From a virus (taxonomy: Duplodnaviria; Caudoviricetes): a stretch of 64,000 nucleotides of DNA. Below, one piece after another: positions 1 through 64,000 of the stretch; the first letter of the stretch is position 1, and each line of letters opens with the position of its first letter. The notes beneath the pieces were generated by a model. That model saw only the letters and a program-made list of their open reading frames with translations, was not told where the DNA came from and ran no database searches. The position numbers and the translations under genes are program-made. Location of the stretch: the IMG/VR virus record IMGVR_UViG_3300020576_004226, positions 1-64,000 of that record; one strand, 5' to 3'.

Positions 1-3000
1 GGTGAAAAGGCTTTCTTGATTATTGACGACAGGGAACACCTGTTCGACGTTGATATGCACTTTGAGTTGACTCTACCGGAGCGCAAGTCGCTTTTGGAGC
101 AAGAGCCGACCGGAATTGTATTTGAATTTGGCAAAAGAATCTATTGGGCTCCATATGATAAGGACTATTACGGGAGCAACCGAAAGGTAAAGATCGCCTT
201 CAATCAGTTCAAATTCATCGGCTCTCCGTTGCTCCAGATAGACATGGAATGGGCGCACCTCGGGGTACATACCGAATATGAGTTGAACAATGGTAATCAC
301 TCCCCTGACGCTTGGTGCGAGAAGGCTAAATTCATTGGTGCAAAAACCATTGCGCTTTGCGACCATAATTCGCTCGGGGGCACGCTGGCTTTCCAACTGG
401 CTTGCGACAAGAAGGGATTGAAGTCAATCATGGGGATGTCCACTACAATAACAAGGCCGAACGGACATAAATTTTCTGCTAAGTTGTTTGTGCAAAACAA
501 GGCTGGCTGGCGCAACCTTCTTCTGATAAGCAAGAACATACATATTGACCAAGACGACGGCGATTCTGTTACAGAGCAATTCCTGTTCAAGCATTCTGAA
601 GGACTTGCTTTTGTGTTCGGTTGCTTCTCGTTGCCAGCGCAGGAAGAGGAGTATGTTGTCATGCAAGGAGTTTTCAAATTGTATGCAAGCCGTTTTCAGC
701 AATGCTTTTGGCAGTTTGATTCGGTGGAGTTTGCAAGTGAGTCAACCGACCTTCGCGTTTTGAATAACTTGAAGTTTCTCAGGAGGGAATGCCCGCTACA
801 GCCTATACTTATCAACGACTCATATTACATAGACAAGGAGATGTGGCTGTTGAAAAAGTACATGAATAAGGCAGGAGGAGTTGCCCACCCGGAAAGCCAC
901 GAGCAGCATTTCAAAACGCTCGATGAGACATTCATAAAAGTCCTTGACCTATTTGGCGCCGAACGGGAAGACGAGGCTCTTGTGTTTTTAACGCAAGCGG
1001 TAGAGAACACCGTAATTTTGTCGGAGACGTGCGATTTTAAAATAGATGTTGGAAGGCACAAACTGCCCAAGTACGAGGTGGTATCGTTGAGTGAGTGCGC
1101 AGGAGACGCCAAACTCCAGCGCATTAGGGAAGCCGCTTTTTGGGAGGGGAGAGGTCTTGAACCCGGTGACATGAGCGGGTTGTTTCATCAATTGCTTGAA
1201 GAAGGTTGGGCAGCCAAATTGAGCCACCTGGATGATGACCAATTCCAAGAATACTACAAGCGGCTCGATACTGAATTGAATGTGATAGTCCCGGCTGGAT
1301 TCATTGACTATTTCCTCATACTTTGGGATTTGATAAGATGGAGCAAGCACGAACGAGGCATTATGGTTGGAAGCGGACGCGGCTCGGTTGCAGGCAGTCT
1401 GATAGCGTTTTTGCTCGACATAACAACGGTTGATCCCATACCATACGGATTGTTGTTTGAACGTTTCATCAATGAGACTCGTGTTTCAGGGGAACGAGCC
1501 ATGCAAGCCGACGCATTACCCGATATTGACTTGGACTTTGAATCAAAGCACCGAGGTGAGGTGAAGCGATATTTGGAATACAAGTATGGGAAGGACTTTG
1601 TCTGCTCTATTGGGGCTTATGGCAGAATGAAGGTCAAGTCAGGCGTGAAGGACTTCGCCAAAATAAAGGGTATTTCATTCTCTGATATGAATTACGTCAC
1701 CTCCTTCATGGATGAGCAATTGCAATGGCTTTGGGAAGATATTTTCAAGTATGCCTTGCAGTCTAAGGTTGTGTACGACTTTGTACAGAAAAACCCGGAA
1801 ATAATCAATGTATTGAACTTCGGCTTGAACCAAGCGACAAATGAATCGGTACACGCTTCCGCTGTAATTATTGTGCCCAAATTCGACCATGAGGGGACGC
1901 CGATGACCATATACGAATGGCTCCCTGTCAAGAAGATGAAAGGCCAAGACGGTGCTTCGATAATTGTGAGCCAATGGGAGGGGAAATATACCGACCGTGG
2001 AGGCTATTTGAAGGAGGACATACTTGGGCTCGACCAACTCGACAAGTTCCACCGCATCAAAGACATAATCATTGCCCAACTGGGTCAAGATGTCATACTC
2101 GAGGATATACCATTCGACGACCATCAAGTGTACAAGGCTTTTGGTAAGGGATGGGTTGAGGACGTGTTCCAATTCGGCTCTGACGGCTTGCGCTCCTACT
2201 CAATACGTTCCAAGCCGAAAGACATTGAGCACTTGATAGCAATGAACGCTCTGTACCGTCCTGGACCGATGTCAAGCAACGCTCACACCGACTTCGCCGA
2301 TATTTTGAACGGCAAGAAGGAGCCAACATATGACTACATGCTCCAGGAGGTTACGGAGCCAACGCTCGGGCTGTACGTTTACCAAGAGCAAATCATGAAG
2401 GCTGTAGTGGTTTTGGGAGGGCTTTCGCTTGTCGAGGCAGACAATTTCCGAACAGCGATCAAGAAGTTCGACAAGGCTAAAATGGCAGCTTACCAGGAGA
2501 AGTTTATTGCAGGCGCCATTGAGCGAGGTTGCCCCGATGACGAGGCAAAATCCATATGGGCTAAACTCCTGCGGTTCTCCGGTTACGGCTTCAACAAGTC
2601 TCACTCGGCGGCTTACTCAATCATGTCATATTGGAGCATGTGGCTGAAGGTTCACTACCCTGTTCCGTTCTGGGCTGCTTCACTGCAATTCAGCCGGGAC
2701 ACTCAAATTCCATACAGGATTTTTGAGATGTCTAAGGTCAATGGAGACATAAAGGTTGTTCCTCCCGATATCAATCATTCTACAAATGAATTTGCTTGTG
2801 ACATACCTTCAAAAACCATATTCTGGTCGCTGACAAAAATCAAAGGCATAGCAGAGAACGGCTTCAACAAAATCATGGCAGAACGGGAAAGAAGCCCATT
2901 CAAATCGGTTGAGGATTTTTTAAAGAGGATGAAGGGTACTGGAATGGGCAAGAGCAAGGCTTTGAGCCTCATTTTATCGGGGTGCTTTGATTCAGCTGAG

Positions 3001-3507
3001 GACATAAAGAAGCCTACAGACCGCATCCGAATCATCAACAAATTGTTTGAGTTGGAAAAGAGCGCAGTACCCGAAGAGTTCAACAGCAAGCAAATTGAGA
3101 AGGAGTATTTTTGGATTATGCTCCAGAGGGATTTGACAGGGTTTGGGGATATTGATTACCCTCACTTGATAGAACAAGTCAACAGAGTTTACACAACATA
3201 TTACACGAAAGCCGAGGATATACCTCTCGTGCGCTCCGGCAAAGAAGTCGTTGTCGCTGGCCAAATAGATGTCATAAGGCCGCGCACCGGGAAAAGAGGC
3301 AAATTTGCTGAAGTACGCATAAGAAACAACAACGGATTCATTGATGTTTTGATGTGGAACGAGGCTTGGGAGAAATATGGTAAAGCGGTCAAAGAGGCTT
3401 GGGAGAACAAAAGCCTTGTGTGTTTGCGTGGTCAAGTCAAAATGGATGATTACCGAGGCTTCAATTGTGTTTACTCTAACGAAAAAACAAGGTTCTTAAT
3501 TCTATGA
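1..3507 (+). CDS. dnaE: DNA polymerase III alpha subunit (phage DnaE); frame open to the window start, probably 5'-partial
   Basis: PHP motifs HLGVHTEY and LCDHNSLGG; GSGRGSVAGSLIAFLLDIT; catalytic LPDIDLDF; KEDILGL; GYGFNKSHSAAY; C-terminal OB fold. No stop between positions 1 and 16. Confidence 0.97.
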   Translation, partial: GEKAFLIIDDREHLFDVDMHFELTLPERKSLLEQEPTGIVFEFGKRIYWAPYDKDYYGSNRKVKIAFNQFKFIGSPLLQIDMEWAHLGVHTEYELNNGNHSPDAWCEKAKFIGAKTIALCDHNSLGGTLAFQLACDKKGLKSIMGMSTTITRPNGHKFSAKLFVQNKAGWRNLLLISKNIHIDQDDGDSVTEQFLFKHSEGLAFVFGCFSLPAQEEEYVVMQGVFKLYASRFQQCFWQFDSVEFASESTDLRVLNNLKFLRRECPLQPILINDSYYIDKEMWLLKKYMNKAGGVAHPESHEQHFKTLDETFIKVLDLFGAEREDEALVFLTQAVENTVILSETCDFKIDVGRHKLPKYEVVSLSECAGDAKLQRIREAAFWEGRGLEPGDMSGLFHQLLEEGWAAKLSHLDDDQFQEYYKRLDTELNVIVPAGFIDYFLILWDLIRWSKHERGIMVGSGRGSVAGSLIAFLLDITTVDPIPYGLLFERFINETRVSGERAMQADALPDIDLDFESKHRGEVKRYLEYKYGKDFVCSIGAYGRMKVKSGVKDFAKIKGISFSDMNYVTSFMDEQLQWLWEDIFKYALQSKVVYDFVQKNPEIINVLNFGLNQATNESVHASAVIIVPKFDHEGTPMTIYEWLPVKKMKGQDGASIIVSQWEGKYTDRGGYLKEDILGLDQLDKFHRIKDIIIAQLGQDVILEDIPFDDHQVYKAFGKGWVEDVFQFGSDGLRSYSIRSKPKDIEHLIAMNALYRPGPMSSNAHTDFADILNGKKEPTYDYMLQEVTEPTLGLYVYQEQIMKAVVVLGGLSLVEADNFRTAIKKFDKAKMAAYQEKFIAGAIERGCPDDEAKSIWAKLLRFSGYGFNKSHSAAYSIMSYWSMWLKVHYPVPFWAASLQFSRDTQIPYRIFEMSKVNGDIKVVPPDINHSTNEFACDIPSKTIFWSLTKIKGIAENGFNKIMAERERSPFKSVEDFLKRMKGTGMGKSKALSLILSGCFDSAEDIKKPTDRIRIINKLFELEKSAVPEEFNSKQIEKEYFWIMLQRDLTGFGDIDYPHLIEQVNRVYTTYYTKAEDIPLVRSGKEVVVAGQIDVIRPRTGKRGKFAEVRIRNNNGFIDVLMWNEAWEKYGKAVKEAWENKSLVCLRGQVKMDDYRGFNCVYSNEKTRFLIL

Positions 3508-4190
3508 AAAACACCATCACACGACGCATGTTATCGGGCGACTTTGACCGTCTGTTCGATACTATCCGCTGGAACAGTAGCCACTTTACTCACCAGCGTG
3601 AAAATCTCGCTTCACACCAATACATGGTTGGAGTTTTGGCGAACGCATTGGCCACTGACCTTTCGTTCGCTCCGGAGTATCGCTTGAATGTTCTTGAATA
3701 CGCTTTGTACCACGACTGGGATGAGATATTCACTGGCGACATAGGCCACGCCGTAAAATACAATACTCATAATGGACCAATTTTGCGCGACACCATTGAT
3801 CAATTGGTCGACTTTACAGCGAAGAAGGAATTCATTGAATCTGCCACTGACGAATCAGAAGTTTTGATTGGACGGGTTTTGAATGGAGAACACGGATACG
3901 CTCCAAGCATACCTATGCTTTCAAAGGTTTGCGATTGGCTTAGCATGCTATTCTTTTGCGTCCGGGAAACTCGGCTTGGTAACACCTATTTCCAAGAAAA
4001 ATTGGTTTATTGTTCCAATTCAACGCTCGGTGCTATCGACAGATTTTGGGAGCAATTCAAGATTGACGTGACCGAAAATGACGCATTCATCACGGTTTTC
4101 GAACCGGATGAGGAGATCATGCAAGAATTGATTGATATCATCAAAGAAATCACTCAATCTACATTACAAGTCGAAATAAAGCAAATATGA
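3504..4190 (+). CDS. HD-domain nucleotide phosphohydrolase (YfbR-like)
   Basis: IRW...ENLASHQYMV...YALYHDWDEIFTGDIGHAVKY...SKVCDWLS matches the YfbR-type HD layout. Confidence 0.85.
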   Translation: MKNTITRRMLSGDFDRLFDTIRWNSSHFTHQRENLASHQYMVGVLANALATDLSFAPEYRLNVLEYALYHDWDEIFTGDIGHAVKYNTHNGPILRDTIDQLVDFTAKKEFIESATDESEVLIGRVLNGEHGYAPSIPMLSKVCDWLSMLFFCVRETRLGNTYFQEKLVYCSNSTLGAIDRFWEQFKIDVTENDAFITVFEPDEEIMQELIDIIKEITQSTLQVEIKQI

Positions 4191-4888
4191 ACTTCGCATT
4201 CTATGGCCGCATCAACGCTGGCAAAGACACAGCAGCAAACATGATGTTTTTCGCTCTTACCTATTGGAAAAAGGGCATTCACAAAAACACTGCTCTTGGC
4301 CAGCCCAATCTCGAAACGATGTGTCAATTCTTTGGCTCTGATTTTGAAAGGGCTAATTTTCATGGAATGATGACCGACGGCAGTCAAACTCCATTCAAAG
4401 ACATAAAGTTTATGTCATTCAGTACTCGCATCCACGAGATGACTGCCTTGTTGACTGGTATACCATTGGAGCAATGCGTTGACCGTCAATTCAAAGATGT
4501 TTTGGTTCCAAGGGGATTTCATAAAACGATTCGTCAAATCATGATTGATATTGGGGAAGGTTTGCGGGCTTCTTACGGCGCCAATGTCTGGGTTGCTCCG
4601 GTGATGAATGCAATTGAAGAAAATCCACGCACCCTTATGTTGATACTCGGTATGCGTCATCCCAATGAGTACTCCGCTTTGGCCTCGTTGGGCAATACAG
4701 TGTTCGTCAAAGTCAAATTGGACTTTGAAGTTGTAAAAGGAGCGGAGTTTGCCGAAGGCTTATTAGAGGAGCATCCTTTTGACGTTGTTCTTGAGAATAC
4801 AAAGGGAGATTTGCGGTTTTTGTGGGAGCAGGTGGTAAACATGGTTTATTATTACGGCGACAAAATAACACTCGATTATGCAAACTGA
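4187..4888 (+). CDS. Deoxynucleoside monophosphate kinase (T4 gp1-like)
   Basis: GRINAGKDTAA P-loop; RQIMIDIGEGLR; NVWV; GMRHPNE. Confidence 0.85.
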   Translation: MNFAFYGRINAGKDTAANMMFFALTYWKKGIHKNTALGQPNLETMCQFFGSDFERANFHGMMTDGSQTPFKDIKFMSFSTRIHEMTALLTGIPLEQCVDRQFKDVLVPRGFHKTIRQIMIDIGEGLRASYGANVWVAPVMNAIEENPRTLMLILGMRHPNEYSALASLGNTVFVKVKLDFEVVKGAEFAEGLLEEHPFDVVLENTKGDLRFLWEQVVNMVYYYGDKITLDYAN

Positions 4889-52788: not shown

Positions 52789-52837
52789 TGAAACTTGAAG
52801 CAGTTATTTTTGAATAAACGTCATTACAATTACAACA

Positions 52838-53629
52838 ATGAGCGATTATAGCATTTTAGATTTTGACGGGCGCAACGGACGTGCTCTGAATTTGGAAGGG
52901 TTCACGAACTTCCAAAAGCCTATTCCCGTATCGGATATCGAGAAAGCCGTTGCGGAAGGCACAATCGTAGCAATTTCTCCGGAAGGGCTTTCCAGGCTCA
53001 ACGACGACCTTGCCAAAGCAATCAAAACAGACTTTGAAGGGATTGACAAGTTCAATTCTGCTGTCTTGGAGATTCGCACCTATCGCAACGTGATTGTTGA
53101 CCGAGGTGGCAAACATGTTGAATACCTCATCAAAGCCGTTCCACAAAAGGAAGAGGCCGCTGACAACCTCGAAAAAGGCGATGAATACTGGGCATTGCGC
53201 GGTGGAATTGCCGAGGGTGAAAAGCAGATTCCCCTGAAGAAAACTGGAGCGGAAATCAAAACTGCTTTCGAAGGCGTTATCACTCGTCTCAAACTTGAAA
53301 ATGGTATCCTTTCCGCTAAGATGTCGGAGTGCGTTGTCGCTTTGGGTAAGTCGCCTACTGACCAGCCATATGACTCATTCGACCGCACAATTGGCAACCG
53401 TTACTCCTGGGAAGACTGCCGTGCGCTTGACCCGGTTGAAGGAGCGATGAACACTGTCAATATGGAGTCTGCTCCCGCAACTGCCAACCATTGCCGCATG
53501 TACAATTCAGCCTTCGAAACTCTGTGTAGCAACATTAAGGCCATCAAGATGGCAAGTGCTTACATAGCCAACGTAGAAGACAATAAGTCATACGACCTCA
53601 AACCTGACTTGTATCTACTTTTGTTCTAA
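52838..53629 (+). CDS. Putative head-associated protein
   Basis: Follows TerL; repeated DIEKA/DLAKA/NLEKG motifs. Confidence 0.45.
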   Translation: MSDYSILDFDGRNGRALNLEGFTNFQKPIPVSDIEKAVAEGTIVAISPEGLSRLNDDLAKAIKTDFEGIDKFNSAVLEIRTYRNVIVDRGGKHVEYLIKAVPQKEEAADNLEKGDEYWALRGGIAEGEKQIPLKKTGAEIKTAFEGVITRLKLENGILSAKMSECVVALGKSPTDQPYDSFDRTIGNRYSWEDCRALDPVEGAMNTVNMESAPATANHCRMYNSAFETLCSNIKAIKMASAYIANVEDNKSYDLKPDLYLLLF

Positions 53630-53662
53630 ACCATCACACACAAACTTGTCAATACAAAAGAA

Positions 53663-54340
53663 ATGAATAAGCAAGTATCCATCTATCTCCGGAACAGCTC
53701 CAACAACAGCATCCGCATGAATGGTTTCTCCCTGGAGGACAATAAAATCATGCTCCACAGTGTTGATACCAGCGCAACCTTTGACACGGCTTTGGCAGCC
53801 AACCTGCGCCAACCGTTTCAAATCGGCTTGACTTACACCTACGCCGAAATTGCGGACTTTTTCCTTGTTCAGATCAAGCATGTTGTTGATTTCACACCCA
53901 ATGCTATCATTGAGCAAGAAGGAGTTGCCGACGTCAATTTGAGCACCAAACTTGGCGCCGCAACAATCGTCGTCAAAGGTAACAACGTGTCAATCGCAGA
54001 CGGTGACGGCACTCCGAGCCTGACTGACCACACTGACTTTGGCACCCAAGCGGCTTCCTCTGGCTCTGTGACTCGCACCTTCTCTATCACCAACACTGGC
54101 CTCGGCTCATTGCTTCTTTCCGGCAGCCCTGCGGTTGTTTTGGCTGGAACCAATGCAGATCAATTCTCGGTTGTCCAGCCTATCAATAAGGTTGTGAAGC
54201 CTGGAGCGGTTGTGACGTTCTCTGTAACATTCGACCCAAGTTCGTCTGGAGCAAAAACTGCCACACTCTCGTTGGCGAACAACGACTCTGGCTCGGGTAA
54301 GAACCCATTCAACTTTACCATTGGTGGCACTGGCTCGTAA
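53663..54340 (+). CDS. Ig-like (choice-of-anchor D / ASH-type) domain protein, probably virion-displayed
   Basis: GNNVSIADGDGTPSLTDHTDFG...TRTFSITNTG...TFSVTFDP...ANND..KNPFNFTIGGTG. Confidence 0.75.
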   Translation: MNKQVSIYLRNSSNNSIRMNGFSLEDNKIMLHSVDTSATFDTALAANLRQPFQIGLTYTYAEIADFFLVQIKHVVDFTPNAIIEQEGVADVNLSTKLGAATIVVKGNNVSIADGDGTPSLTDHTDFGTQAASSGSVTRTFSITNTGLGSLLLSGSPAVVLAGTNADQFSVVQPINKVVKPGAVVTFSVTFDPSSSGAKTATLSLANNDSGSGKNPFNFTIGGTGS

Positions 54341-54404
54341 TACCAAGGTTTTTTAAGATATCAACCGACACAACAATAGTTTCGCCAACCAATTTTACAA
54401 GCGC

Positions 54405-54890
54405 ATGAGAAACAAACTTTCTTTGCTCCTGGGTTGTTTGACGCTGGTTTTGTTTGGTTTGTTCACCACTCCTGTTCAGGCTGAAGACAATTCGCCAACG
54501 CAGGTCTTTGTGGATCAAGCCGACCTTTCCTTCGATCAAGCCGTACCATCTGCCGTTCTGCTTTTGAACGCTCCGCTGCCCATTCTGTCGCCTCAATCCA
54601 TTTTGGAAGTCCCCGGCGATGTTGGTTCCATTGCAACCGGAAATTTCGATGCTGATTGGCCTCCTGGCTCCACCACCGCGCAAGCAATAAATTTTGACAA
54701 CTTGCTGAGGTGTGGATATCATGAAAATTACGGCTATACCAACCTGAACTGGCAAAGCAACCAAAACTCCTGCTACAACACCACATTAACCGGAATTGAT
54801 ATTGACCGATCATGTGGCTTGAATCAGGATGTTACTCCGCTCGTTACCAGCACAGCCAATCAAACCACCCGGCATGTTCTGATGTGTTAG
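54405..54890 (+). CDS. Exported protein with signal peptide
   Basis: MRNKLSLLLGCLTLVLFGLFTTPVQA leader. Confidence 0.6.
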   Translation: MRNKLSLLLGCLTLVLFGLFTTPVQAEDNSPTQVFVDQADLSFDQAVPSAVLLLNAPLPILSPQSILEVPGDVGSIATGNFDADWPPGSTTAQAINFDNLLRCGYHENYGYTNLNWQSNQNSCYNTTLTGIDIDRSCGLNQDVTPLVTSTANQTTRHVLMC

Positions 54891-54987
54891 CGAGAAGCAT
54901 GCACAAATGTCCCCCACGATTGAAGAAGTCGCTGCCTTGCTTGACCGCTCGGTAGCGACTTTTATTTTGCACAAGGTTTTTAAGCAT

Positions 54988-55650
54988 ATGGACAATAAAT
55001 ATGTTATATGGTTTTTAGGAGCAAATGCTTCCGGCAAGTCAACTTTGTCTGCACTCATCCAGAGGGAATTGAGCGAACGTTACCCGAGGCGCAAGGACGC
55101 AAGAACTGATTTTGTGATTGATCAAAGCAACGGAGTCATATTGACTTTGACGTCAACGAATAGTGCCAACTTAGGTAAGTTCAATCACCCTGTTCTTTAT
55201 GAAGGAAAGGTCAAAACCAATGCATGCTGCGGCACTGACACGCTCCCAAAGAAGGATTTGATAGGGAGGGCTTTGGAGGTTGCTGGCTCAAATGAAATTA
55301 AATTCATTTTTGTTGAGGGTATTATGGCCACCCGACAATGGGTTGACCTATTCCCGGAAGGCTATCGAATTTTGCTCATATTGCTTGATATTGACATTGA
55401 GAACTGCATCCTGCGCCTTACCCAGCGAAGAAGTGAGAAGTCCGGTCTCGAGCAAAGAGAGGTGCTCGAATCGCTGACCGAGAAGACGGTGGAGAACGTC
55501 ACCGGGAAAATAAACGGCTTCCGCAGGATGTACGATGACCTGGTTTTGAGGCGAGATATTGTAGGAATGAAGTACGCTGTGGACCAAAGTTTTAACAGCG
55601 TCGAGATATCCAAACACATAGCAAATCTTTTAATTCATGGAAAAATTTGA
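54988..55650 (+). CDS. 5-hmdU DNA kinase-like P-loop kinase (copy 1)
   Basis: GANASGKST; LGKF...ACCGTDTL; IFVEGIM; CILRLTQRR; cluster context. Confidence 0.75.
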   Translation: MDNKYVIWFLGANASGKSTLSALIQRELSERYPRRKDARTDFVIDQSNGVILTLTSTNSANLGKFNHPVLYEGKVKTNACCGTDTLPKKDLIGRALEVAGSNEIKFIFVEGIMATRQWVDLFPEGYRILLILLDIDIENCILRLTQRRSEKSGLEQREVLESLTEKTVENVTGKINGFRRMYDDLVLRRDIVGMKYAVDQSFNSVEISKHIANLLIHGKI

Positions 55651-56539
55651 GACCCACGTGCTCATCATCGGGGCTGGCTTGTTCGGCTCCATGACCCAGA
55701 AACTCCTTCGCTCCAAAGGCATTGAGTCATTGATTGTTGACCGACGCGACCCGCTCTCCGCAAGCAAGTGCTCTTCAGGAATTTGGCGTCCAGGCTGGGC
55801 TGGAAAAATTGCTCCGCAAGTTGAGCAAAGTATCCCAACAATCAGCCTTTTCACGGCGATTGACACGCTTCCAATTTATGATGCCGACAAGGACACTGAG
55901 ACAAGCATCGACTTCATTGATTGCAACAACATTCTAAATGAAGACTTCCTGGAGGGTGATGTTATTGGCTGTAATTTTGTTGACAATCGCCCGAACGCCA
56001 AAGTGCGCTCCGTAATTGTTGATGTTGACGGAGTCAAAGTGGAAATTGGTTGCACACAACTCGTCATTTGCGCAGGAGCATTTACCAACGCAGTGCTCGA
56101 GAAACTCAAACTCCCTGTTCTTTACGGGCTTGACGCGCATTGGGGAGCGGTTCTGCACTGCCGAGAGAAATTGACGCAAAACTTCATCCAGAATTGGGCT
56201 CCATACAAGCAATTGTACGGCTTAAACTTGATTCGAGACGGTAAAGAGGTGTCATACTTCACAATGGGTATGTCAGCAAAAAATCCTCCAAAGGGAGGTG
56301 ACAACCGAACGCTTGCCATAGGTGAGAAAATGGAGGCCGCAGCCCGAGGCTTCAAAATGAAAAACATCATTGAGATACCCGAGGGCAACCGTCCTTTCTT
56401 TGCCGAGAAGGACGTTGATTTTGTCAACAAGCATACTGTCAACGTCTGGTCAGCAACTGGAGGCGCAAAAAACAGCACTCTGTTGTGCGGATATGTCGCT
56501 CAACGTCTTTTTCAAGAAATAACAGGCCATGCCCAATAG
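55637..56539 (+). CDS. FAD-dependent oxidoreductase/lyase (DAO/glycine-oxidase-like)
   Basis: IIGAGLFG Rossmann motif; ASKCSSG; VICAGAF; EGNRP; ATGGAKNSTL. Confidence 0.85.
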   Translation: MEKFETHVLIIGAGLFGSMTQKLLRSKGIESLIVDRRDPLSASKCSSGIWRPGWAGKIAPQVEQSIPTISLFTAIDTLPIYDADKDTETSIDFIDCNNILNEDFLEGDVIGCNFVDNRPNAKVRSVIVDVDGVKVEIGCTQLVICAGAFTNAVLEKLKLPVLYGLDAHWGAVLHCREKLTQNFIQNWAPYKQLYGLNLIRDGKEVSYFTMGMSAKNPPKGGDNRTLAIGEKMEAAARGFKMKNIIEIPEGNRPFFAEKDVDFVNKHTVNVWSATGGAKNSTLLCGYVAQRLFQEITGHAQ

Positions 56540-56540
56540 T

Positions 56541-56708
56541 ATGGAATGGAAATCAAAGTTAATTTTGCAAATAAAACACGGCATGCATAACGGCACAATC
56601 AAGCGTTCGATGGCACAAGAGATTGTAAATTTGATGCGCGAGAATAAGCCGTTTCGGTTGTTGTACAACCAAAACCGAGGCTACGTGGGATTCCAGTACA
56701 CATCATAA
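56541..56708 (+). CDS. Small ORF (55 aa) below the ORF-track cutoff
   Basis: ATG one base after the flavoenzyme stop; MEWKSKLILQIKHG...QYTS. Confidence 0.4.
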   Translation: MEWKSKLILQIKHGMHNGTIKRSMAQEIVNLMRENKPFRLLYNQNRGYVGFQYTS

Positions 56709-56732
56709 GTTTAACCAAAACTATTTAGCACC

Positions 56733-57041
56733 ATGGCAAAGGCCACCGACAAAAAGACTGCAAGCAAAGCAGCACCCGCTACCAAGCCGGCATCCAAACT
56801 CACCCCTGACGCAAAGGGCAACTACCCGCACCAATTGTACTCTGTGAAGCAGAAGACTTTTGTTGATCTGGCCAAGAAGCCTCTGCCTGTTTTGACTTCC
56901 ACCGGACGCGGCGCATACATGTGCAAAGGTCAGGATGTTGAAGGAAACACGCTGGCGATGATCGTGAGCAAATTGGTTGCTGCCAACTGGGTTGAACGCA
57001 AACTCGCTGTGTACGCAGAAGGTTCTGAACCGGAAGCGTAG
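56733..57041 (+). CDS. Small basic protein with K/A/P-rich histone-like N-terminus
   Basis: MAKATDKKTASKAAPATKPASK. Confidence 0.6.
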   Translation: MAKATDKKTASKAAPATKPASKLTPDAKGNYPHQLYSVKQKTFVDLAKKPLPVLTSTGRGAYMCKGQDVEGNTLAMIVSKLVAANWVERKLAVYAEGSEPEA

Positions 57042-57069
57042 TCTGTCCGACTGTTTGCGTTTTTCTACT

Positions 57070-57113
57070 TCCTGCCGGGACACCTCTCCATGGTTAAGAC
57101 CCGGCAGGATTTT
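57070..57113 (+). terminator. Intrinsic terminator
   Basis: tcctgccggg...cccggcagga followed by tttt. Confidence 0.7.
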
Positions 57114-57127
57114 AATTTTGAAACATC

Positions 57128-57715
57128 ATGAAATTCAAGCAAATATCAAAAACTGAATTGTACCCTTGGCTGAATTATATCAGCAAAACCTTCCGTGGGA
57201 TAATGCCTCCCAAAGAAAAGAAATTCCTTGGCGAAATTCGGGTTGGGGTTTTGTACAATTGCACAATGGTGGTCTTGGAAGATGAAGAAGTTGATGGTCA
57301 CCCGTTCTTGTCCCTTATCAGTTACACAATCACAAAAAGGTATCTGAACATCTATTTTATGTACACAACTCCAGGCTTCCGTGGTATAGGACTCAACAAT
57401 GCCATTTTGGATTATGTCATGGAAAATCACGCAGCTGAGATCGACCGTATATACGTCATCACCTCAACACTCGACAGCGTGGCGTTCTATTTCAACAAGG
57501 GCTTCAAGTTTTGGGGCTTAGACAAAAACCGTTGCCTTGTCGCAGAGTTTGATATAACAGCAACTGAACAACCGCGCAAGTCAGAGAAGGTGTGTAAGGA
57601 ACTTTACTTGGGAGAGCCTTTGAATGACGAGCGAATTGTTGACGAGTTGACGATGAATCAAAATCCAAATTACAATCACTCCGTCAAAGAATTGATGGCA
57701 AAGAAGATTCTATGA
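57128..57715 (+). CDS. GNAT-family acetyltransferase
   Basis: YFMYTTPGFRGIGL acetyl-CoA motif A; AFYFNKGF motif B. Confidence 0.82.
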   Translation: MKFKQISKTELYPWLNYISKTFRGIMPPKEKKFLGEIRVGVLYNCTMVVLEDEEVDGHPFLSLISYTITKRYLNIYFMYTTPGFRGIGLNNAILDYVMENHAAEIDRIYVITSTLDSVAFYFNKGFKFWGLDKNRCLVAEFDITATEQPRKSEKVCKELYLGEPLNDERIVDELTMNQNPNYNHSVKELMAKKIL

Positions 57716-58674
57716 GCGACACTAAAATCTACAAAGACTTTGACCTTTACAGCCGAGCGTTGATGGGCAGCAATGATGTCGACCCGACGTATCCGGTAAT
57801 CAAGTCAATCGTTGAGAAAGAGGGATTTGACCCTTATTGGTTTTCATTCGTGTATGTAGCGTTCTACAGCCTGGAGACGGCAATCAAAATGTGCCGGGAA
57901 ATGCCAACTCACGAGGCTTGGGACAGTAAGTTGTTTGCTCAAAAGCGGAGCAGCCGAGAGTGGAGCAAATTCGGTCACGAGCGCAGGGGAACTGCGAGGA
58001 ACATCTTGACCCAAATCAATAATTTCGAGCATATAAAGTTGTTCTTGGAATACTTCACAACTCCCACCGGAGAAATTGACCCGAGCCAATATCCAAAAGA
58101 ATGGGCAAAACTACACCAAGACCAAGCCTCATTCAGAGCAGCTCTTCAGACTTTACCGTTCCACGGCGGCTGGGCTTCTTTTAAGTTGGCTGAGATATGG
58201 GAGAAGGCTTTTGATTGGAGTCACTTTGAGATTCCAGACCTTGGAGTCATTGGCCGCGACCCGAATAGCAACGATGGTCCAGTTGGTGGCTTACGTTGGC
58301 TCTACGGAAGGGAGCACACCTACGATGACACTTGGTATGGCATATGGGATGATCTTGGCTCTAAGTTGGCGAGAGCGTGGCGAGTCGACATCGGGAGAGT
58401 TGAGACGTGCTTCTGCAAATTCCATAAGTTGGTAAGCGGCAAGTATTACATTGGTCATGACATACACGAGTTTCACGAGTTGGAGCCTGTATTGGGTCGG
58501 AGGGTTTACCGCTCCATAATGGAAGAACATTTTGACCCGGAAATTTGGCAAGACTTCCACGGTGTACAAAAACAATTCAAATCAGTTTACGCAACCAAAG
58601 GCAATTTGTTATTCAGCAACTTCGCTGACAAACACCCAGAGGCTGACGTACTACAAATTATGTTGGATCAATGA
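57712..58674 (+). CDS. Amino acid:DNA transferase (aGPT-Pplase clade 2)
   Basis: DVDPTY; YVAFYSL; ERRG; GGWASFKLAE; ETCFCKFHKLVSGKYYIGHDI. Confidence 0.85.
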   Translation: MSDTKIYKDFDLYSRALMGSNDVDPTYPVIKSIVEKEGFDPYWFSFVYVAFYSLETAIKMCREMPTHEAWDSKLFAQKRSSREWSKFGHERRGTARNILTQINNFEHIKLFLEYFTTPTGEIDPSQYPKEWAKLHQDQASFRAALQTLPFHGGWASFKLAEIWEKAFDWSHFEIPDLGVIGRDPNSNDGPVGGLRWLYGREHTYDDTWYGIWDDLGSKLARAWRVDIGRVETCFCKFHKLVSGKYYIGHDIHEFHELEPVLGRRVYRSIMEEHFDPEIWQDFHGVQKQFKSVYATKGNLLFSNFADKHPEADVLQIMLDQ

Positions 58675-59042
58675 AAAAGAAAGGAATGGAGGAGGACGTT
58701 GTGCGACTTCTCACTATCAATACTTCAACTGGCAAAGTTAGCAAACACATGCTGGTCGGCTCCAAGCGAGTTTTCATCGATTTGGAGCGTTGTCGCTGTC
58801 ACGTTCCTGGGGAGTCGAAATACCAATACAAGCATCTTGGTGTAGGTTGGAACGACTGCGAGTTGAACGTGGAAGACCCGAGCCTCGTCATTGTATTGCC
58901 TAATTGGCGGGTGCGCTTTGCCCAGAAAATTTGGGAGGGCGTGTTCTGCGACGACTTCGACAGCGGCAAGAATGATACGATATTGTTGAACATAAAAGAC
59001 TTGACCCGTTATGTGGGACAAGGCAAATGGAAGAAAATATGA
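58671..59042 (+). CDS. Hypothetical protein inside the modification operon
   Basis: ATGA overlaps at both ends. Confidence 0.6.
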   Translation: MKKKGMEEDVVRLLTINTSTGKVSKHMLVGSKRVFIDLERCRCHVPGESKYQYKHLGVGWNDCELNVEDPSLVIVLPNWRVRFAQKIWEGVFCDDFDSGKNDTILLNIKDLTRYVGQGKWKKI

Positions 59043-59674
59043 AGATTTTATGGTTGATAGGCTCTATGGCCTCTGGCAAAACCACGCAACACAAGTTGCT
59101 CATCGAGTTGCTCGGCGACGGTACGCTTGATGTCAATAATGGCTGCAAAGACCCGCTCCCTTTTTGCTTTTCAGTTTCTGGCGAGGTTGGTTCGCTTGGG
59201 CTTCTGAAAGAAGGAGTACAAACTTGTGGAATTGACCCGGTTTACGGCGACCTCAAAAAAGAAGGGCTTCGCCGCTCCATTGCGATGGCTCACGAGAAAG
59301 GCGCAGAGTTGATTATTATGGAGGGTGCACAAGCGTCTATGGAATGGTACAAGCAAGTCATTCTACCGCAATACTACGATGCGGAGCTGTACGTCGTCCA
59401 CCTGTCAATATCTTATGACCACAACTTGCAAAGACTCCGGCAACGGCGGTGGCTAAAAACTCACGACACATTGGAAGGCTTCACTGGCTCTGACCAGATG
59501 GTTTTGGAAGACCGGACGTATGACAATGTGCTCGGAAAGAACAAACAATACCGCAGCCTATTCCGGGCATTAACAAAGCAGTCTGAAAAGGACGGCTTCA
59601 AGACTCTGGAGATTGATGCGCTGCTTGATCGTTATCAAATTCTTGAACAAATTGCTGAATTCATATATGCCTAA
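59039..59674 (+). CDS. 5-hmdU DNA kinase-like P-loop kinase (copy 2)
   Basis: GSMASGKTT; SLG...TCGID; IIMEG; NLQRLRQRR; parallels copy 1. Confidence 0.72.
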   Translation: MKILWLIGSMASGKTTQHKLLIELLGDGTLDVNNGCKDPLPFCFSVSGEVGSLGLLKEGVQTCGIDPVYGDLKKEGLRRSIAMAHEKGAELIIMEGAQASMEWYKQVILPQYYDAELYVVHLSISYDHNLQRLRQRRWLKTHDTLEGFTGSDQMVLEDRTYDNVLGKNKQYRSLFRALTKQSEKDGFKTLEIDALLDRYQILEQIAEFIYA

Positions 59675-60365
59675 ATCACTCATTTTCTGCGACGACTCCC
59701 TGAAAGTATTGAAGCGTTTCCCGGCTCGCCACTTCGCTGTCAGCTGCTTCTCTCCACCCTATGGCGTCAATTCCTTCTTTGATATCAGAACCGACTTTGA
59801 CAGCCCAGAAAGCAAGTTCCTCACTTATTTTCAGGAGATCACTCGGGTGTGCGATATCACTGCAATCAATTTCACCCAGTTGCTTGAAGGTGACAAGCGC
59901 AATTCCCTCTTCATTGAGAAATTGATTATCAACGCGGCTTGCATGGGTGTCAACCTTTACGACCGTTGGGTAATTGAGAAGCCTTCGGTGAAGCCGAGGA
60001 GAGGCGAACGTCCTTTGAGCGGCTATGAGTTTGTGCTGCTGTTTTTGAACCCTAACATGACCGAGAAGGACGTTGTTTTGAACCAAGATGCTTACAACTT
60101 CCGTACAAACATAAAGGCTTCCGGACACGCAAACTACAAGAAGTCGGATGAATTCCGTTACACTGGAACCACCCCGTATTTCCCTGAGATTCCACGTCAG
60201 GTCATTTCCATATATGGCAGTGGTCGGGTGCTTGATCCATTTTCTGGCTCCGGTACGACGTTGGTTGAGGCTTTGAAGTTGGGGAAGGATTGCGTTGGGG
60301 TTGATATCATTCCGGAAATTGTTGAATTTTCAAGAAACAATTGCAGACAATATGAAAGTCACTGA
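59667..60365 (+). CDS. Beta-class amino-methyltransferase fold (N4C/N6A MTase-like)
   Basis: SPPY near the N-terminus; VLDPFSGSGTT SAM-binding motif near the C-terminus. Confidence 0.85.
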   Translation: MPKSLIFCDDSLKVLKRFPARHFAVSCFSPPYGVNSFFDIRTDFDSPESKFLTYFQEITRVCDITAINFTQLLEGDKRNSLFIEKLIINAACMGVNLYDRWVIEKPSVKPRRGERPLSGYEFVLLFLNPNMTEKDVVLNQDAYNFRTNIKASGHANYKKSDEFRYTGTTPYFPEIPRQVISIYGSGRVLDPFSGSGTTLVEALKLGKDCVGVDIIPEIVEFSRNNCRQYESH

Positions 60366-61416
60366 TATGCGCGACATAGTTGGCTACAATTTCGCCAACG
60401 GCATTGACCTGAGAAAGCCGCTCGAGTGGGTCGGTTCTCTTCCCAGCCCCGAGGTTGACGTGGATGAAGCGCACCTTGCCACGTTCTTTGAGATCATGAA
60501 AGAACGCCAAAAAATTTGGGTCAGGCGTTCGCTCCTTGACAAACCCGCTCCGTGGACTAAAAATCCCATTCTGCGCGACTACAAGTACACCAATGTGTAC
60601 AGGGAACTTGATCGAGCAAGCCAATTCATGATTAAGCACATCTTGACCCAAGATATGACGATTGAAGAAAAACTGTTCAAATTGCTCGTTTTCCGTTTCT
60701 ACAACCAACCCGATTCTTTCCGGCAGAACGGCGGCTTGATTGACCTTCCGAGTTATGAAAATTGGGACGTCAAAAAGATTTGGGCGCAAACAGTGGCACA
60801 GCGTCAAAAGTCCAACCCTTGGCACGTCGCTTACATGATGAACATGGCGTTCGCTCCGAAGTTGGAGAAGCCTTGGAGCAAGCCTGGACTGTACAAAGAC
60901 TGGGCATACACTCACATTGTATTCAATGCTATTCATAAGGTGATACCCGGCTTGGTTACTGTGCTCGATCAAGCCAAAAGACCGGAAGACATAATTGAAT
61001 GCCTGGAAACAATTCCTGCTGTCTCCACTTTCCAATCGCACGAATTTTACATTGACTTCACATATTTCAGCCGTTACTCGGAAGACGACGCCATAATGAG
61101 TTTTGACGCGAATGATTTTACAAATGTGGGTCCAGGGGCATCGCTCGGGTTGCGGTTGATATTCCCATCAATGCGTCCAGCCGACCAGAAAGCAGGGCTT
61201 TACTACCTACACGAATTGGCTGAGAATTACTTGGGGGAGGACTTTCCGTATCTCGTGTGGAATAAAGATCAAAAGAAATATTATGTTGTACACGAGTACG
61301 ACCGCAATCTGTTCACGCTTCACCAAATTGAAATGTTTTTGTGCGAATTTTCTAAGTACTGGAAAATGGTAATTGGTGCAGGAAAGCAGAGATCAAAATT
61401 CAAACCACATGTGTAA
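60352..61416 (+). CDS. aGPT-Pplase clade 1 protein (5-hmdU modification, helical domain)
   Basis: ERQKIW..R..PAPWTKNPILRDYKYTNVYRELDR; FRFYN; VGPGASLGL; IEMFLCEFSKY. Confidence 0.88.
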   Translation: MKVTDMRDIVGYNFANGIDLRKPLEWVGSLPSPEVDVDEAHLATFFEIMKERQKIWVRRSLLDKPAPWTKNPILRDYKYTNVYRELDRASQFMIKHILTQDMTIEEKLFKLLVFRFYNQPDSFRQNGGLIDLPSYENWDVKKIWAQTVAQRQKSNPWHVAYMMNMAFAPKLEKPWSKPGLYKDWAYTHIVFNAIHKVIPGLVTVLDQAKRPEDIIECLETIPAVSTFQSHEFYIDFTYFSRYSEDDAIMSFDANDFTNVGPGASLGLRLIFPSMRPADQKAGLYYLHELAENYLGEDFPYLVWNKDQKKYYVVHEYDRNLFTLHQIEMFLCEFSKYWKMVIGAGKQRSKFKPHV

Positions 61417-61423
61417 CAAAGGC

Positions 61424-61933
61424 ATGAGAATTCATTCTGAAGAATTCAAGCGAAAAATAAGAGAAAAACTCAATCCTCCTGGTAGAAGTTATTCGACAAC
61501 GAAAGGCTGTAAATTGACTTTGAGTGAATCCCAGAGGGAAGATTTGAGAAACAGAGCCAAGAAAAATAATGAGCGTGGTTTCGAGAATAAAGGTGGTCGT
61601 TGCCAATTTTATCAAGTCGATGGCATCGTTTTGCAAGGTCGCTACGAGTTGGTGTATTATCTTGGATGCAGTGAAAAACCCAAGCGAGCACCACGGATAA
61701 AAACTCCTTTCGGTTGGTATTCTCCTGATTTTGAGTTTGAAGATAGATTTGTAGAAATTAAATCAATTTACACAATCAAAACTTGCATTGCCAACGGACA
61801 GTACAAGAAAATTGCTTGGGTCAGAAAAAATATCAAAAACATTGAAATCAAGGTTCTCAATGAGGAAGATTCTCGGTTGTTCTTGTTGCAGCATGACATA
61901 TCGAAGTTGCGATACCGACCGTCAAAGAATTAG
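61424..61933 (+). mobile_element. Free-standing PD-(D/E)xK homing-endonuclease-like gene
   Basis: HSEEFKRKIRE NUMOD3-like motif; YSPDFEFEDRFVEIKS; AT-richer than the upstream gene. Confidence 0.6.
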
Positions 61934-61983
61934 TAAACAGGTATTTTAACTTCATTTGAACACGAACTAATTTTCCAATTTCA

Positions 61984-63480
61984 ATGGATACTTTACAAGA
62001 ACTCAAACGTCAAAGAGGAGTTATTGCACGCAATATCTTATCAACCATCCAGTTGCCTGCTTCAGATGGGCTTCCAGTATATCACGAATCAGATTTTGAA
62101 AAGGCCGTCTCAGATGGCTTGATCGAAGTTTTTGAGGTTGAGAAAGTTTCCCAATTTGTTCGCAATTTACAGAAAGCCGAGGTTGACGCCAACGGAGACA
62201 CCACGCTTCTTGAGGAAATTGAGAAGGCAAGAAGGGATGTTTCCAAACTTATCAAAGTAAAGAAGCAAGACAAGCGTGGAAAAATGACCACTGTATATGT
62301 CCGGGCTGGCGAAAAAGCGAAAGAAGGCGATTCTGGAAAAAAGTCTGAGGCCGCTTCTGGAGATGGCGGCGAAGCAAAAATAGGTAAAATATCTCGTTCG
62401 CATGCCGAGTCCAATCCAGATGATGCCATTCATACCTACTCAAAGGAAATTGCGCACCACTCCGGTATGTCGCACGATGAATACAATAAGTTGCATCCGG
62501 CTTCAAAGAAGGAATTGCTGAAAACCCTTCTCACTCATCCAGCGCACAATGCGGAAGGAAGTAAGACTGTTCCTGCAGATGACAAGAAGGAAGAGCCTGA
62601 TTACCACTCGCTCGGCAGGATTTTGTCTCATGACTTTGATCATACGAAAAAACACTTAGGTGACAAATATGTTTCAAAAGACGGCAAAAGAATTGATCAA
62701 CACGCCATATTGGCAGATCATCCAGGAGACAAATTAAAACAAGCAGCCGACAAATTGGATGATGCTAAGAAAGGCAAAAGCGATCACAAAGACCTCGGTA
62801 AAGTTCACCCGGTTGACTGGGATGGACCGAGCAAGGTGAAGGTTGTCGGCGCTGACGACAAGCAAGTACATGTGAAGCGAGTTGGAAAGGATGGCAAGGA
62901 AATGCAGGGAGATGAACACAGCATGTCATATTCGCACAAGGAATGGGATGAGGAAAAACAAACAGGAAAAGCACTTCACGGACAAGACCCAAAGGCTTTT
63001 GGAGATGATAACCCAGACGAATCTCATGGCCAAAAAGGTAAACGTCCAAAAGAATGGAAAAATCCTGATTACTATAAAAATTGGGATGTGGATGAGCTAA
63101 AGGGAGCTATAAAACATGGAGAAGATACAGCTGACTACGAGGAGGGAGATGAGATTCACCAAGAATTAGAAGCAATGAAAGTGGCTTTGAAATCAAAAGC
63201 AAAGCAAGAAAAATCTCATGTCCAATCTCTTTCAGAAGATTTATTTGAGAATTACATCAATCCTTCGATGAATTGGAAGAATGACATGAAGCAAATTTGG
63301 GAGAAAAACGGAAAGCCTTCAAAGATTGCAATGCACACAAAGTTGAATGAATTACTTTCAAATGAGTATGATTCCGCTTCAGAAGGTGGTTTTCCGTATG
63401 AAGGAACTAAAGAAGAATTCATCAATGCTGTACGTTCTGACATTTTGTCGGCAATTTTTGGAGAAACAAATAAAGGATAA
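61984..63480 (+). CDS. Highly charged protein, putative internal head protein
   Basis: DFEKA/NLQKA/EIEKA motifs; K/D/H-rich; directly upstream of the portal gene. Confidence 0.5.
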   Translation: MDTLQELKRQRGVIARNILSTIQLPASDGLPVYHESDFEKAVSDGLIEVFEVEKVSQFVRNLQKAEVDANGDTTLLEEIEKARRDVSKLIKVKKQDKRGKMTTVYVRAGEKAKEGDSGKKSEAASGDGGEAKIGKISRSHAESNPDDAIHTYSKEIAHHSGMSHDEYNKLHPASKKELLKTLLTHPAHNAEGSKTVPADDKKEEPDYHSLGRILSHDFDHTKKHLGDKYVSKDGKRIDQHAILADHPGDKLKQAADKLDDAKKGKSDHKDLGKVHPVDWDGPSKVKVVGADDKQVHVKRVGKDGKEMQGDEHSMSYSHKEWDEEKQTGKALHGQDPKAFGDDNPDESHGQKGKRPKEWKNPDYYKNWDVDELKGAIKHGEDTADYEEGDEIHQELEAMKVALKSKAKQEKSHVQSLSEDLFENYINPSMNWKNDMKQIWEKNGKPSKIAMHTKLNELLSNEYDSASEGGFPYEGTKEEFINAVRSDILSAIFGETNKG

Positions 63481-64000
63481 TGAGCGACACAAAACCTCAC
63501 AAATTAGACGCCATTTCTGGTGCTATAGCTAAATTGGAATTGCTCCGGCTGAAGACGCTGGAGCAAAGCCTTGTTTCTAATGATCCACATGAGATAATGA
63601 AGGCTGAAACTGTGCTCGCTTCTGTTCAGAATAGGGATGAAAGCGATCGCAAGAGCTATCAAATTGATCCAAACGATTTTTACAGTGCATTTGGATACAA
63701 GGAGCGCAGAACTGGGATGTCTTATGGATTGTTGCGTAATATGGCTAAAACGCCTATTATCAACGCCATTATTCGAACCCGTATCAACCAAGTCGCATCG
63801 TTCAGTGAACCACAGGAAGATAGGTATTCTTTGGGTTTTGTTATTGAGAAGAAGCCACTTCGTCATGATGACAAAGATTCATCAAAGAAATTGACGAAGC
63901 AAGAGATGAAGGAAATTGACTTTTTGACCGATTTCATCAATAATTGCGGAGTAAACAATTCATTTGAGGGAGACGATTTTGACACGTTCATAAGGAAAAT
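63480..64000 (+). CDS. Portal protein (5' part; runs off the window)
   Basis: My translation gives MSDTKPHK...PIINAIIRTRINQVASF...GFVIEKK...FINNCG...DDFDTFIRK, resembling Herelleviridae-type portal N-termini; frame open to 64000. Confidence 0.8.
   Translation, partial: MSDTKPHKLDAISGAIAKLELLRLKTLEQSLVSNDPHEIMKAETVLASVQNRDESDRKSYQIDPNDFYSAFGYKERRTGMSYGLLRNMAKTPIINAIIRTRINQVASFSEPQEDRYSLGFVIEKKPLRHDDKDSSKKLTKQEMKEIDFLTDFINNCGVNNSFEGDDFDTFIRK

Follow-up and report, generated by a model that had tools for sequence, protein, structure and literature searches.

Hypermodification of thymidine protects phage DNA against restriction and against certain CRISPR nucleases, and the pathways that bring it about are a source of new base-acting DNA enzymes. 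The closest described system to the one considered here is that of the Pseudomonas siphovirus PaMx11, whose reconstituted enzymes convert 5-hydroxymethyldeoxyuridine (5-hmdU) to 5-phosphomethyldeoxyuridine (5-PmdU), N-alpha-glycinylthymine (N-alpha-GlyT), 5-aminomethyldeoxyuridine (5-NmdU) and finally 5-acetylaminomethyldeoxyuridine (5-AcNmdU) (Lee et al., PMC8989533). The PaMx11 locus encodes, in order, an amino acid:DNA transferase (AADT; gp46), a lyase (gp47), an acetyltransferase (gp48), a kinase (gp49), a PF18723 protein (gp50), a thymidylate-synthase-like protein (gp51), and an HD protein (gp52), with gp46 characterized as a glycine:DNA transferase, gp47 as a flavin-dependent lyase, and gp49 as a 5-hmdU DNA kinase (PMC8989533, PMC11472151). 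The phages ViI and SP10 each carry two 5-hmdU DNA kinase-type genes (PMC5889632, Table 3), and SP10 gp186 is a kinase fused to PF18723 (PMC5889632). Here, we compare with these systems a ten-gene cluster at positions 54988-61416 of the window, the whole stretch of DNA that was analyzed, which comprises the first 64 kb of the 85,321-bp linear IMG/VR virus record IMGVR_UViG_3300020576_004226 (completeness ~76% according to CheckV).

We put at roughly 70% the probability that this cluster is a PaMx11-type post-replicative thymidine hypermodification operon, carried by a DnaE-replicating phage of ~110 kb with a probable Bacteroidota host. Gene identities, conserved catalytic residues, synteny with relatives, and the linkage of the methyltransferase to clusters of this kind are observed directly. 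Ten open reading frames (ORFs) on the plus strand fill the interval from the ATG of the first kinase gene, k1, to the stop codon of the PF18723 gene, hel, with overlaps of 4-16 nucleotides (nt) at seven of the nine junctions, and no plus-strand terminator-like site was seen within 54988-61416. The co-directional, mostly overlapping arrangement and the gene order given in a first-pass annotation of the window are thus confirmed by the ORFs. The genes are kept as a block in at least 10 related metagenomic contigs, which argues against a chance set of ORFs. Related contigs and loci are labeled L0xx or G003 below; G003 is complete (110,210 bp, with direct terminal repeats), and L009 is its locus. 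The genes of the cluster are the following:

54988..55650, plus strand: k1, P-loop kinase resembling 5-hmdU DNA kinase (paralogue 1; Walker A motif GANASGKST)
55637..56539, plus strand: lyase dependent on flavin adenine dinucleotide (FAD), of the PaMx11 gp47/N-alpha-glycinylthymine oxidase (NGTO) type (matches PDB 8z2o and 8z79)
56529..56708, plus strand: s59, small ORF (87% identical ORF in L022; ORFs of 54 amino acids [aa] in the same place in L024 and L025)
56733..57041, plus strand: s102, small protein with a Lys/Ala/Pro-rich N terminus (63-84% identical in L022, L024, and L025; 34% in the distant L007)
57128..57715, plus strand: GNAT-fold acyltransferase, putative counterpart of PaMx11 gp48 (from its AlphaFold2 [AF2] fold)
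57712..58674, plus strand: AADT (aGPT-Pplase clade 2; profile match, catalytic Cys kept)
58671..59042, plus strand: u123, small protein in which a DLERxRxHxPG motif is conserved (homologues in L019, L024, and L025)
59027..59674, plus strand: k2, P-loop kinase resembling 5-hmdU DNA kinase (paralogue 2; Walker A motif GSMASGKTT)
59667..60365, plus strand: SPPY beta-class amino-methyltransferase (MTase; PF01555)
60352..61416, plus strand: hel, PF18723 protein (aGPT-Pplase clade 1; now 5-hmdU DNA kinase helical domain; 3e-44)

The flavoenzyme matches the PaMx11 flavin-dependent lyase structures 8z2o and 8z79 over its full length (4e-16) and phrog_16743 at 3e-19, and the gp47 residues W51, Y180, Q182, and K268 recur in it as W54, Y190, Q192, and K278. 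The AADT as a single sequence scores 20.5 bits against PF18724 (ADDT), under the gathering cut-off of 26.2 bits. It has at least 85 homologues, found on contigs of up to 110 kb, most of which bear PF18724, and a profile built from 34 sequences retrieved only two matches from the PDB, AADT 25qc (6e-11) and the PaMx11 glycinyltransferase 8z2m (2e-8). The PaMx11 gp46 residues D24, W146, K150, D175, and E243 and its catalytic C247 correspond to D24, W154, K158, D183, E231, and C235 of the AADT and are invariant in all 34 sequences, save D183 (32 of 34); the gp46 residues, as well as the gp46 and gp47 structures, were taken from PMC11472151. We therefore treat this protein as a divergent, predicted member of PF18724. 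Neither the single protein nor the small alignment A2 retrieved close AADT relatives from IMG/VR.

The PF18723 protein hel scores 151.9 bits against its family (HMUDK_hel; cut-off, 25), covering profile positions 3-276 of 281, and matches phrog_2396 at 1e-45 and PaMx11 gp50 over its full length at 6e-18. The two kinases are paralogues (hhalign E value of 5e-38) and are linked to the 5-hmdU DNA kinase of PaMx11 through sequence and profile matches: k1 alone finds gp49 at 2e-8 by blastp, the k1, k2, and merged profiles match gp49 at 6e-8, 6e-11, and 2e-13, respectively, and among ~700 phage proteins the k1 and k2 profiles match, outside their own clade, only gp49 and the gp49 homologue of L027. 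Against PF18748, k1 reaches 9e-5 and 22.5 bits, under the Pfam gathering cut-off of 27 bits, and PF18751 is likewise sub-threshold; k2 gave no match to PF18748 (HMUDK_HMUD1), and only 4 of the 18 clade kinases matched it, all at E values typical of sub-threshold scores. The GNAT protein stays below threshold against PF13508. Its AF2 model has a predicted local distance difference test (pLDDT) score of 87.8, and the top Foldseek PDB matches listed are all GNAT proteins or putative acetyltransferases, with a probability of 1.0. In sum, the first-pass assignment of the locus to thymidine hypermodification and its family calls were right (PF18723 at 3e-44, 8z2o at 4e-16, the AADT profile, the gp49 matches, the GNAT fold, and PF01555 for the MTase). 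Of the family checks it had proposed for the kinase and both aGPT-Pplase clades, PF18723 was positive outright, whereas PF18748 and PF18724 were negative with single sequences and supported through profiles and residues.

The presence of two kinases and a PF18723 protein raises the question of how they are paired. In L003, L022, L024, and G003, k2 directly adjoins hel, so that k2 and hel together would represent a split form of the SP10 kinase-PF18723 pair. Pfam's present name for PF18723 designates it the helical domain of the kinase, and its fusion to the kinase in SP10 gp186 means that hel provides no evidence for a second transferase. A second transferase module composed of k2, the MTase, and the PF18723 protein and making a separate adduct was also considered and is not favored, as k2 and hel adjoin in relatives, like gp49 and gp50 of PaMx11 and the fused pair of SP10, and the MTase is an insertion between them. 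Like ViI and SP10, the phage thus has two 5-hmdU DNA kinase-type genes and a kinase associated with PF18723; unlike those phages, which tailor by pyridoxal phosphate or radical S-adenosylmethionine (SAM) enzymes and have no flavin lyase, it encodes a flavin lyase and keeps kinase and PF18723 as separate genes. Genes for k1, the lyase, the AADT, and hel were present in every relative with DNA examined; k2 occurs in most relatives and is missing from some. G003 has three kinases resembling 5-hmdU DNA kinase, namely, k1 and two tandem k2 copies (L009:10924-12218).

Since every gene from PaMx11 gp46 to gp50 has a counterpart here, that of gp48 being a putative one, with the catalytic residues of gp46 and gp47 kept, the core is best read as the known pathway, its likely product being 5-NmdU or 5-AcNmdU and not a new scaffold. 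The resemblance extends to a gp51-like gene in syntenic relatives and to an HD protein in the nucleotide module, as PaMx11 gp52 lies beside the thymidylate-synthase-like gene. The differences are nevertheless considerable. Identities to the PaMx11 proteins are only 20-28%, the gene order is different, there are two kinase paralogues and three extra small ORFs, and an SPPY methyltransferase is inserted between kinase and PF18723 partner. Moreover, the cluster sits between the terminase and portal genes, unlike those of PaMx11 and M6, which are located beside replication genes, and the carrier is a DnaE-type phage with a probable Bacteroidota host instead of a Pseudomonas siphovirus. The first-pass claim of a surplus of catalytic parts over the needs of a single linear pathway is not supported in that form, given that the five enzyme classes are those of gp46-gp50 and that a second kinase is precedented in ViI and SP10. 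With the core matching PaMx11 chemistry, what had been called an expanded cluster shrinks to the accessory MTase, the precedented extra kinase, and three small ORFs, of which only the MTase and the small ORFs appear to be truly extra. The new elements would be the cluster-linked MTase subfamily, the location within the packaging module, and the probable Bacteroidota host, and the locus extends the PaMx11-type pathway to a clade of ~100- to 110-kb DnaE phages, probably on Bacteroidota.

We propose the following pathway, in which each chemical step, as well as the amino acid donor, is predicted from sequence. A dUMP hydroxymethylase of the thymidylate synthase family, encoded beyond the left end of the record, would act with the HD deoxynucleotidase and the deoxynucleoside monophosphate (dNMP) kinase to allow replication with 5-hmdU replacing T. 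The kinase k1, and k2 with its PF18723 helical partner, would then phosphorylate 5-hmdU in DNA to give 5-PmdU, and Cys235 of the AADT would serve to replace the phosphate by an amino acid, of which glycine is the likeliest. Cleavage of the resulting N-alpha-GlyT by the flavin lyase would leave 5-NmdU, the amine of which may be acetylated by the GNAT protein to form 5-AcNmdU.

Several observations weigh against this reading or parts of it. Neither k1 nor k2 attains the PF18748 cut-off, and the role of PF18723 is itself a predicted one. The sequence similarity between the GNAT protein and gp48 is weak (hhalign, 53%) and confined to the acetyl coenzyme A-binding motif, and the GNAT gene is present in the nearest relatives only, more distant clade members being without it. 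The record contains no hydroxymethylase gene, the presence of which in the phage is predicted from relatives whose neighboring proteins are 75-79% identical. Finally, the AADT is just distantly related to gp46 (blastp, 0.007), and so its donor need not be glycine. This last point opens the way for an alternative, which we regard as unlikely, in which the AADT installs another amino acid or amine and the flavoenzyme and GNAT protein tailor this different adduct into a thymidine derivative unlike any PaMx11 intermediate. Known AADTs take glycine, serine, or putrescine (PMC8989533, Table 1), and the three conserved small ORFs are still unexplained. Furthermore, the nearest cultured AADT relatives, 25-28% identical, are aGPT-Pplase2 proteins of dioxygenase-start actinophage clusters, such as those of Gordonia phage Wooper and Rhodococcus phage Tonitrus (PMC11955845, PMC13229309). 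However, the flavoenzyme is a full-length homologue of N-alpha-GlyT oxidase that keeps the base-binding and wedge residues, which points to a glycine adduct as the substrate.

Regarding the small ORFs, s59 and s102 had no family match, and u123 yielded no family, no fold lead, and no usable Atlas match. The u123 gene is missing from L003 and L022. Co-variation of u123 with the MTase was considered and rejected, as L024 has u123 without the MTase. In other clade members, the place of the GNAT gene is taken by a gene for a MazG-like (PRA-PH/MazG-like pyrophosphohydrolase) or NYN-domain protein (L005:9188-9787; L008:7181-7822), which suggests further variants of the pathway.

A thymidine hypermodification pathway requires a source of 5-hmdU, and the genes relevant to its supply lie at the left end of the window, which also encodes RecA-like and SbcCD-like proteins:

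1..3507, plus strand: dnaE, 5'-incomplete (base 1 corresponds to residue 34 of the L030 DnaE, 89% identical)
3504..4190, plus strand: HD-domain 5'-deoxynucleotidase (YfbR-like; PF12917, 3e-17; phrog_7076, 2e-13)
4187..4888, plus strand: dNMP kinase (phrog_139, 8e-19)

The 85,321-base record contains no match to PF00303 or PF12851, and the hmdU-supply gene that the first-pass annotation had called for is accordingly absent from this ~76%-complete record; a PF00303 gene was found instead upstream of dnaE in three relatives. Window base 1 aligns to DnaE residue 34 of the closer relatives L029 and L030 (87-89% identity), and in G003, L029, and L030 dnaE is immediately preceded by a thymidylate-synthase-family gene encoding 399-415 aa, its product being 35-42% identical to PaMx11 gp51 in these three syntenic relatives. 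G003 is syntenic along its whole length, with a gene product of 399 aa that is 42% identical to gp51, and in L029 and L030, whose HD proteins are 75-79% identical to that encoded here, a primase gene, a helicase gene, and a thymidylate-synthase-family gene that overlaps the start of dnaE follow one another. The record thus breaks 33 codons into dnaE, ~100 nt downstream of the expected end of the thymidylate-synthase-family gene, and the missing hydroxymethylase gene is most simply explained as an assembly limit. An attempt to extend the record leftward by exact look-up of the HD protein returned no match. The genes for DnaE, the HD 5'-deoxynucleotidase, and the dNMP kinase form a chain of overlapping ORFs (1-4888) and, with the thymidylate-synthase-family gene of the relatives, look like one nucleotide-pool/replication operon.

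Taken at face value, a record without PF00303 or PF12851 in 85,321 bases could mean that the cluster is idle in this phage, with neither hydroxymethylase nor thymine dioxygenase to provide 5-hmdU. We consider this very improbable: the record is only ~76% complete and starts inside dnaE, the thymidylate-synthase-family gene sits just upstream of dnaE in the complete genome G003 as well as in L029 and in L030, and every gene of the cluster is intact and conserved. A thymine dioxygenase as the source of hmdU was likewise rejected, as neither the record nor four relatives have PF12851; in this respect the clade, with its thymidylate-synthase-family gene in relatives, is unlike the actinophages mentioned above, whose pathways start with a TET/JBP thymine dioxygenase.

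The host is probably a member of the Bacteroidota. The cultured DnaE matches listed all belong to phages of Chryseobacterium, Cellulophaga, Tenacibaculum, or Bacteroides; for TerL, Bacteroides phages gave the best matches; and a Shine-Dalgarno-like core precedes 6% of the genes versus 15% of random positions. Bacteroidota are largely without Shine-Dalgarno sites, and this depletion together with the DnaE and TerL similarity makes the host proposed by the first-pass annotation plausible. No direct connection to a host emerged: a scan of genome contigs gave only a distant Brevibacterium match, no tRNA genes were found in the window, and the TAnnTTTG promoter motif was not enriched. The first-pass statement that characterized carriers are not Bacteroidota phages also held, no phage of a Bacteroidota host having been found among the listed GenBank phages that encode the lyase, an AADT of this type, or a PF18723 protein. 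Among the matches listed, the lyase occurs in GenBank phages of Pseudomonas, Stenotrophomonas, or Rhizobium, and this AADT type occurs in actinophages. None of five cultured phages of such Bacteroidota hosts had PF18723.

The component that most clearly sets this locus apart is the MTase. It matches PF01555 at 3e-13 (50.7 bits; cut-off, 26.7) and is compact, at 232 aa, with SPPY at residues 29-32 (motif IV) before DPFSGSGTT at 190-198 (motif I, FxGxG) and with PYxPEIP in place of the usual HP..KP motif. The nearest folds to its AF2 model (pLDDT, 91) are CcrM, M.PvuII, a rotifer N4-cytosine methyltransferase, M.RsrI, and M.MboIIA, with TMq values of 0.72-0.80 to TTHA0409, CcrM, and M.PvuII. A HMMER search of 1.84 billion representative sequences returned 19 at E values of <=1e-30, followed by a sharp fall to generic methylases, and SPPY is invariant. 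This subfamily is small and distinct, comes from metagenomes only, and occurs almost solely inside such clusters; no member was found in GenBank phages, and no close relatives were found in IMG/VR with the single protein or alignment A2. With the wider alignment A8, IMG/VR yielded generic PF01555 loci only, which served as a control set, and none of these 80 generic phage loci had AADT, hel, lyase, or kinase neighbors. Long MTase-matching proteins (P0120-P0122) proved to be concatenated methylases and not fusions to hypermodification enzymes.

Genomic context was obtained for four lineages of the subfamily, and in three of them (this clade, L027, and L028) the MTase gene lies inside a cluster with AADT and flavin lyase genes. 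The L027 and L028 proteins are 45% identical to the MTase and are encoded next to the AADT and FAD lyase: the order is AADT-MTase-lyase-kinase-GNAT-hel in L027, a phage whose terminase is of another type, and AADT-lyase-MTase in L028, an M6/PaMx11-like contig in which the MTase takes the position of the PaMx11 acetyltransferase. In the fourth lineage, L026, the 13 kb available contained no hypermodification genes. Within the clade, the MTase was found in this phage, L019-L021, and L025, whereas L003, L022, and L024 lack it even though their AADTs are equally close (73-80%). In relatives that carry the MTase, no other cluster gene is as well conserved (99% identity in L019 and 90% in L025, versus 75-81% for AADT and hel), and in L007 and L008 a non-homologous FkbM methyltransferase occupies the same slot, just before hel. 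The MTase is thus an accessory component, found in some close relatives and absent from others. Its association with the cluster is not due to chance.

This genomic association points the MTase to the hypermodification pathway, in which it might methylate either the nitrogen that the lyase leaves free or the acetamide formed by the GNAT protein, yielding 5-methylaminomethyl-dU or N-methyl-acetamidomethyl-dU. Such an activity has a putative counterpart in tRNA modification. The FAD domain of tRNA MnmC converts 5-carboxymethylaminomethyluridine (cmnm5U) to 5-aminomethyluridine (nm5U), and its methyltransferase domain converts nm5U to 5-methylaminomethyluridine (mnm5U). In both cases a flavin lyase and a SAM methyltransferase are encoded together, and the lyase would act on the same glycine-derived side chain; the flavin lyase is indeed homologous to MnmC1 (PMC8989533). 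Unlike MnmC, however, the predicted substrate is DNA and the MTase is a beta-class PF01555 enzyme for which no resemblance to MnmC2 was found, so that the functional likeness is a putative one. The distinctness of the subfamily, its recurrence in three of four lineages against none of 80 control loci, its strong conservation, its altered PYxPEIP motif, and the use of an FkbM methyltransferase in the same slot of sister phages are all in line with a role in the pathway, and to our knowledge FkbM enzymes have not been described to act on DNA bases.

On the other hand, the fold and invariant SPPY of the MTase are those of ordinary beta-class DNA N4-cytosine/N6-adenine methylases. The (D/N/S)PPY pocket of such enzymes acts on planar amino or amide nitrogens, and we know of no case in which it accepts alkylamines. 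The close relatives L003, L022, and L024 do well without the MTase, L026 has a member apart from any hypermodification gene seen, and L027 and L028 may have a single ancestral cassette in common, in which case the lineages are perhaps not fully independent. The alternative is a conventional sequence-specific methylase, forming N4-methylcytosine (m4C) or N6-methyladenine (m6A), that would travel with the cluster because it covers T-free restriction sites that thymine hypermodification cannot protect. Motif IV in the form SPPY is typical of N4-cytosine methylases, the nearest folds are the DNA methylases listed above, and the JGI annotation of an MTase relative is cytosine-N4-specific. Its presence or absence among near-identical clusters resembles that of a mobile accessory gene, and homing-endonuclease-like genes lie nearby (a GIY-YIG gene in L019 and the TnsA-like u186 gene described below). 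What a conventional methylase leaves unexplained is why one small subfamily, and not any methylase, should recur in these clusters and why an FkbM-type enzyme should occupy the same slot in sister phages.

We judge methylation of the side-chain nitrogen and ordinary m4C/m6A methylation co-selected with the cluster to be about equally probable, each at somewhat less than even odds. Slightly more tentative is the composite proposal that the SPPY subfamily, and FkbM in sister phages, has been recruited to N-methylate the side chain in what would be the first predicted thymidine hypermodification system of phages probably infecting Bacteroidota. If side-chain methylation does occur, it would provide a new natural DNA base and a DNA-alkylamine/amide methyltransferase for the enzyme toolbox, with 5-methylaminomethyl-dU being the DNA twin of tRNA mnm5U; the literature searched held no report of either methylated base in DNA, including 5-methylaminomethyl-dU in phage DNA, and none of a methyltransferase in such clusters. 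If, instead, the MTase is an m4C methylase, two layers of modification would be combined to cover T-free restriction sites.

Almost all genes of the window are on the plus strand, and the cluster is located in the packaging module, between the large terminase and portal genes. The surrounding features are as follows:

51091-52788: large terminase gene
61409..61933, plus strand: u186, probable TnsA-like PD-(D/E)xK endonuclease (PDF...VEIK motif read in the sequence)
from 63480: portal gene

Placement of the cluster in the packaging module (51091-64000) is the same in all relatives examined and may reflect late expression coupled to packaging. Look-alikes of u186 in the ESM Atlas bear TnsA_N, NUMOD3, and DUF1064 endonuclease domains, a lead only, and the gene is retained downstream of hel in G003, L019, and L024. 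It is probably a homing-type endonuclease that adjoins the cluster and probably stands outside the modification pathway. In the close relative L019, a GIY-YIG endonuclease gene lies between the AADT gene and the u123 homologue (L019:10103-10618), and intein/homing-endonuclease domains occur in the terminase gene on P0009, a contig from another relative. The mosaic composition of the clusters may be driven by such mobile endonucleases. The gap between the terminase gene and the cluster (53663-54890) is occupied by two genes that are conserved in relatives, one for a HYDIN/DUF1573-type immunoglobulin-like protein and one for a 161-aa protein with an apparent signal peptide.

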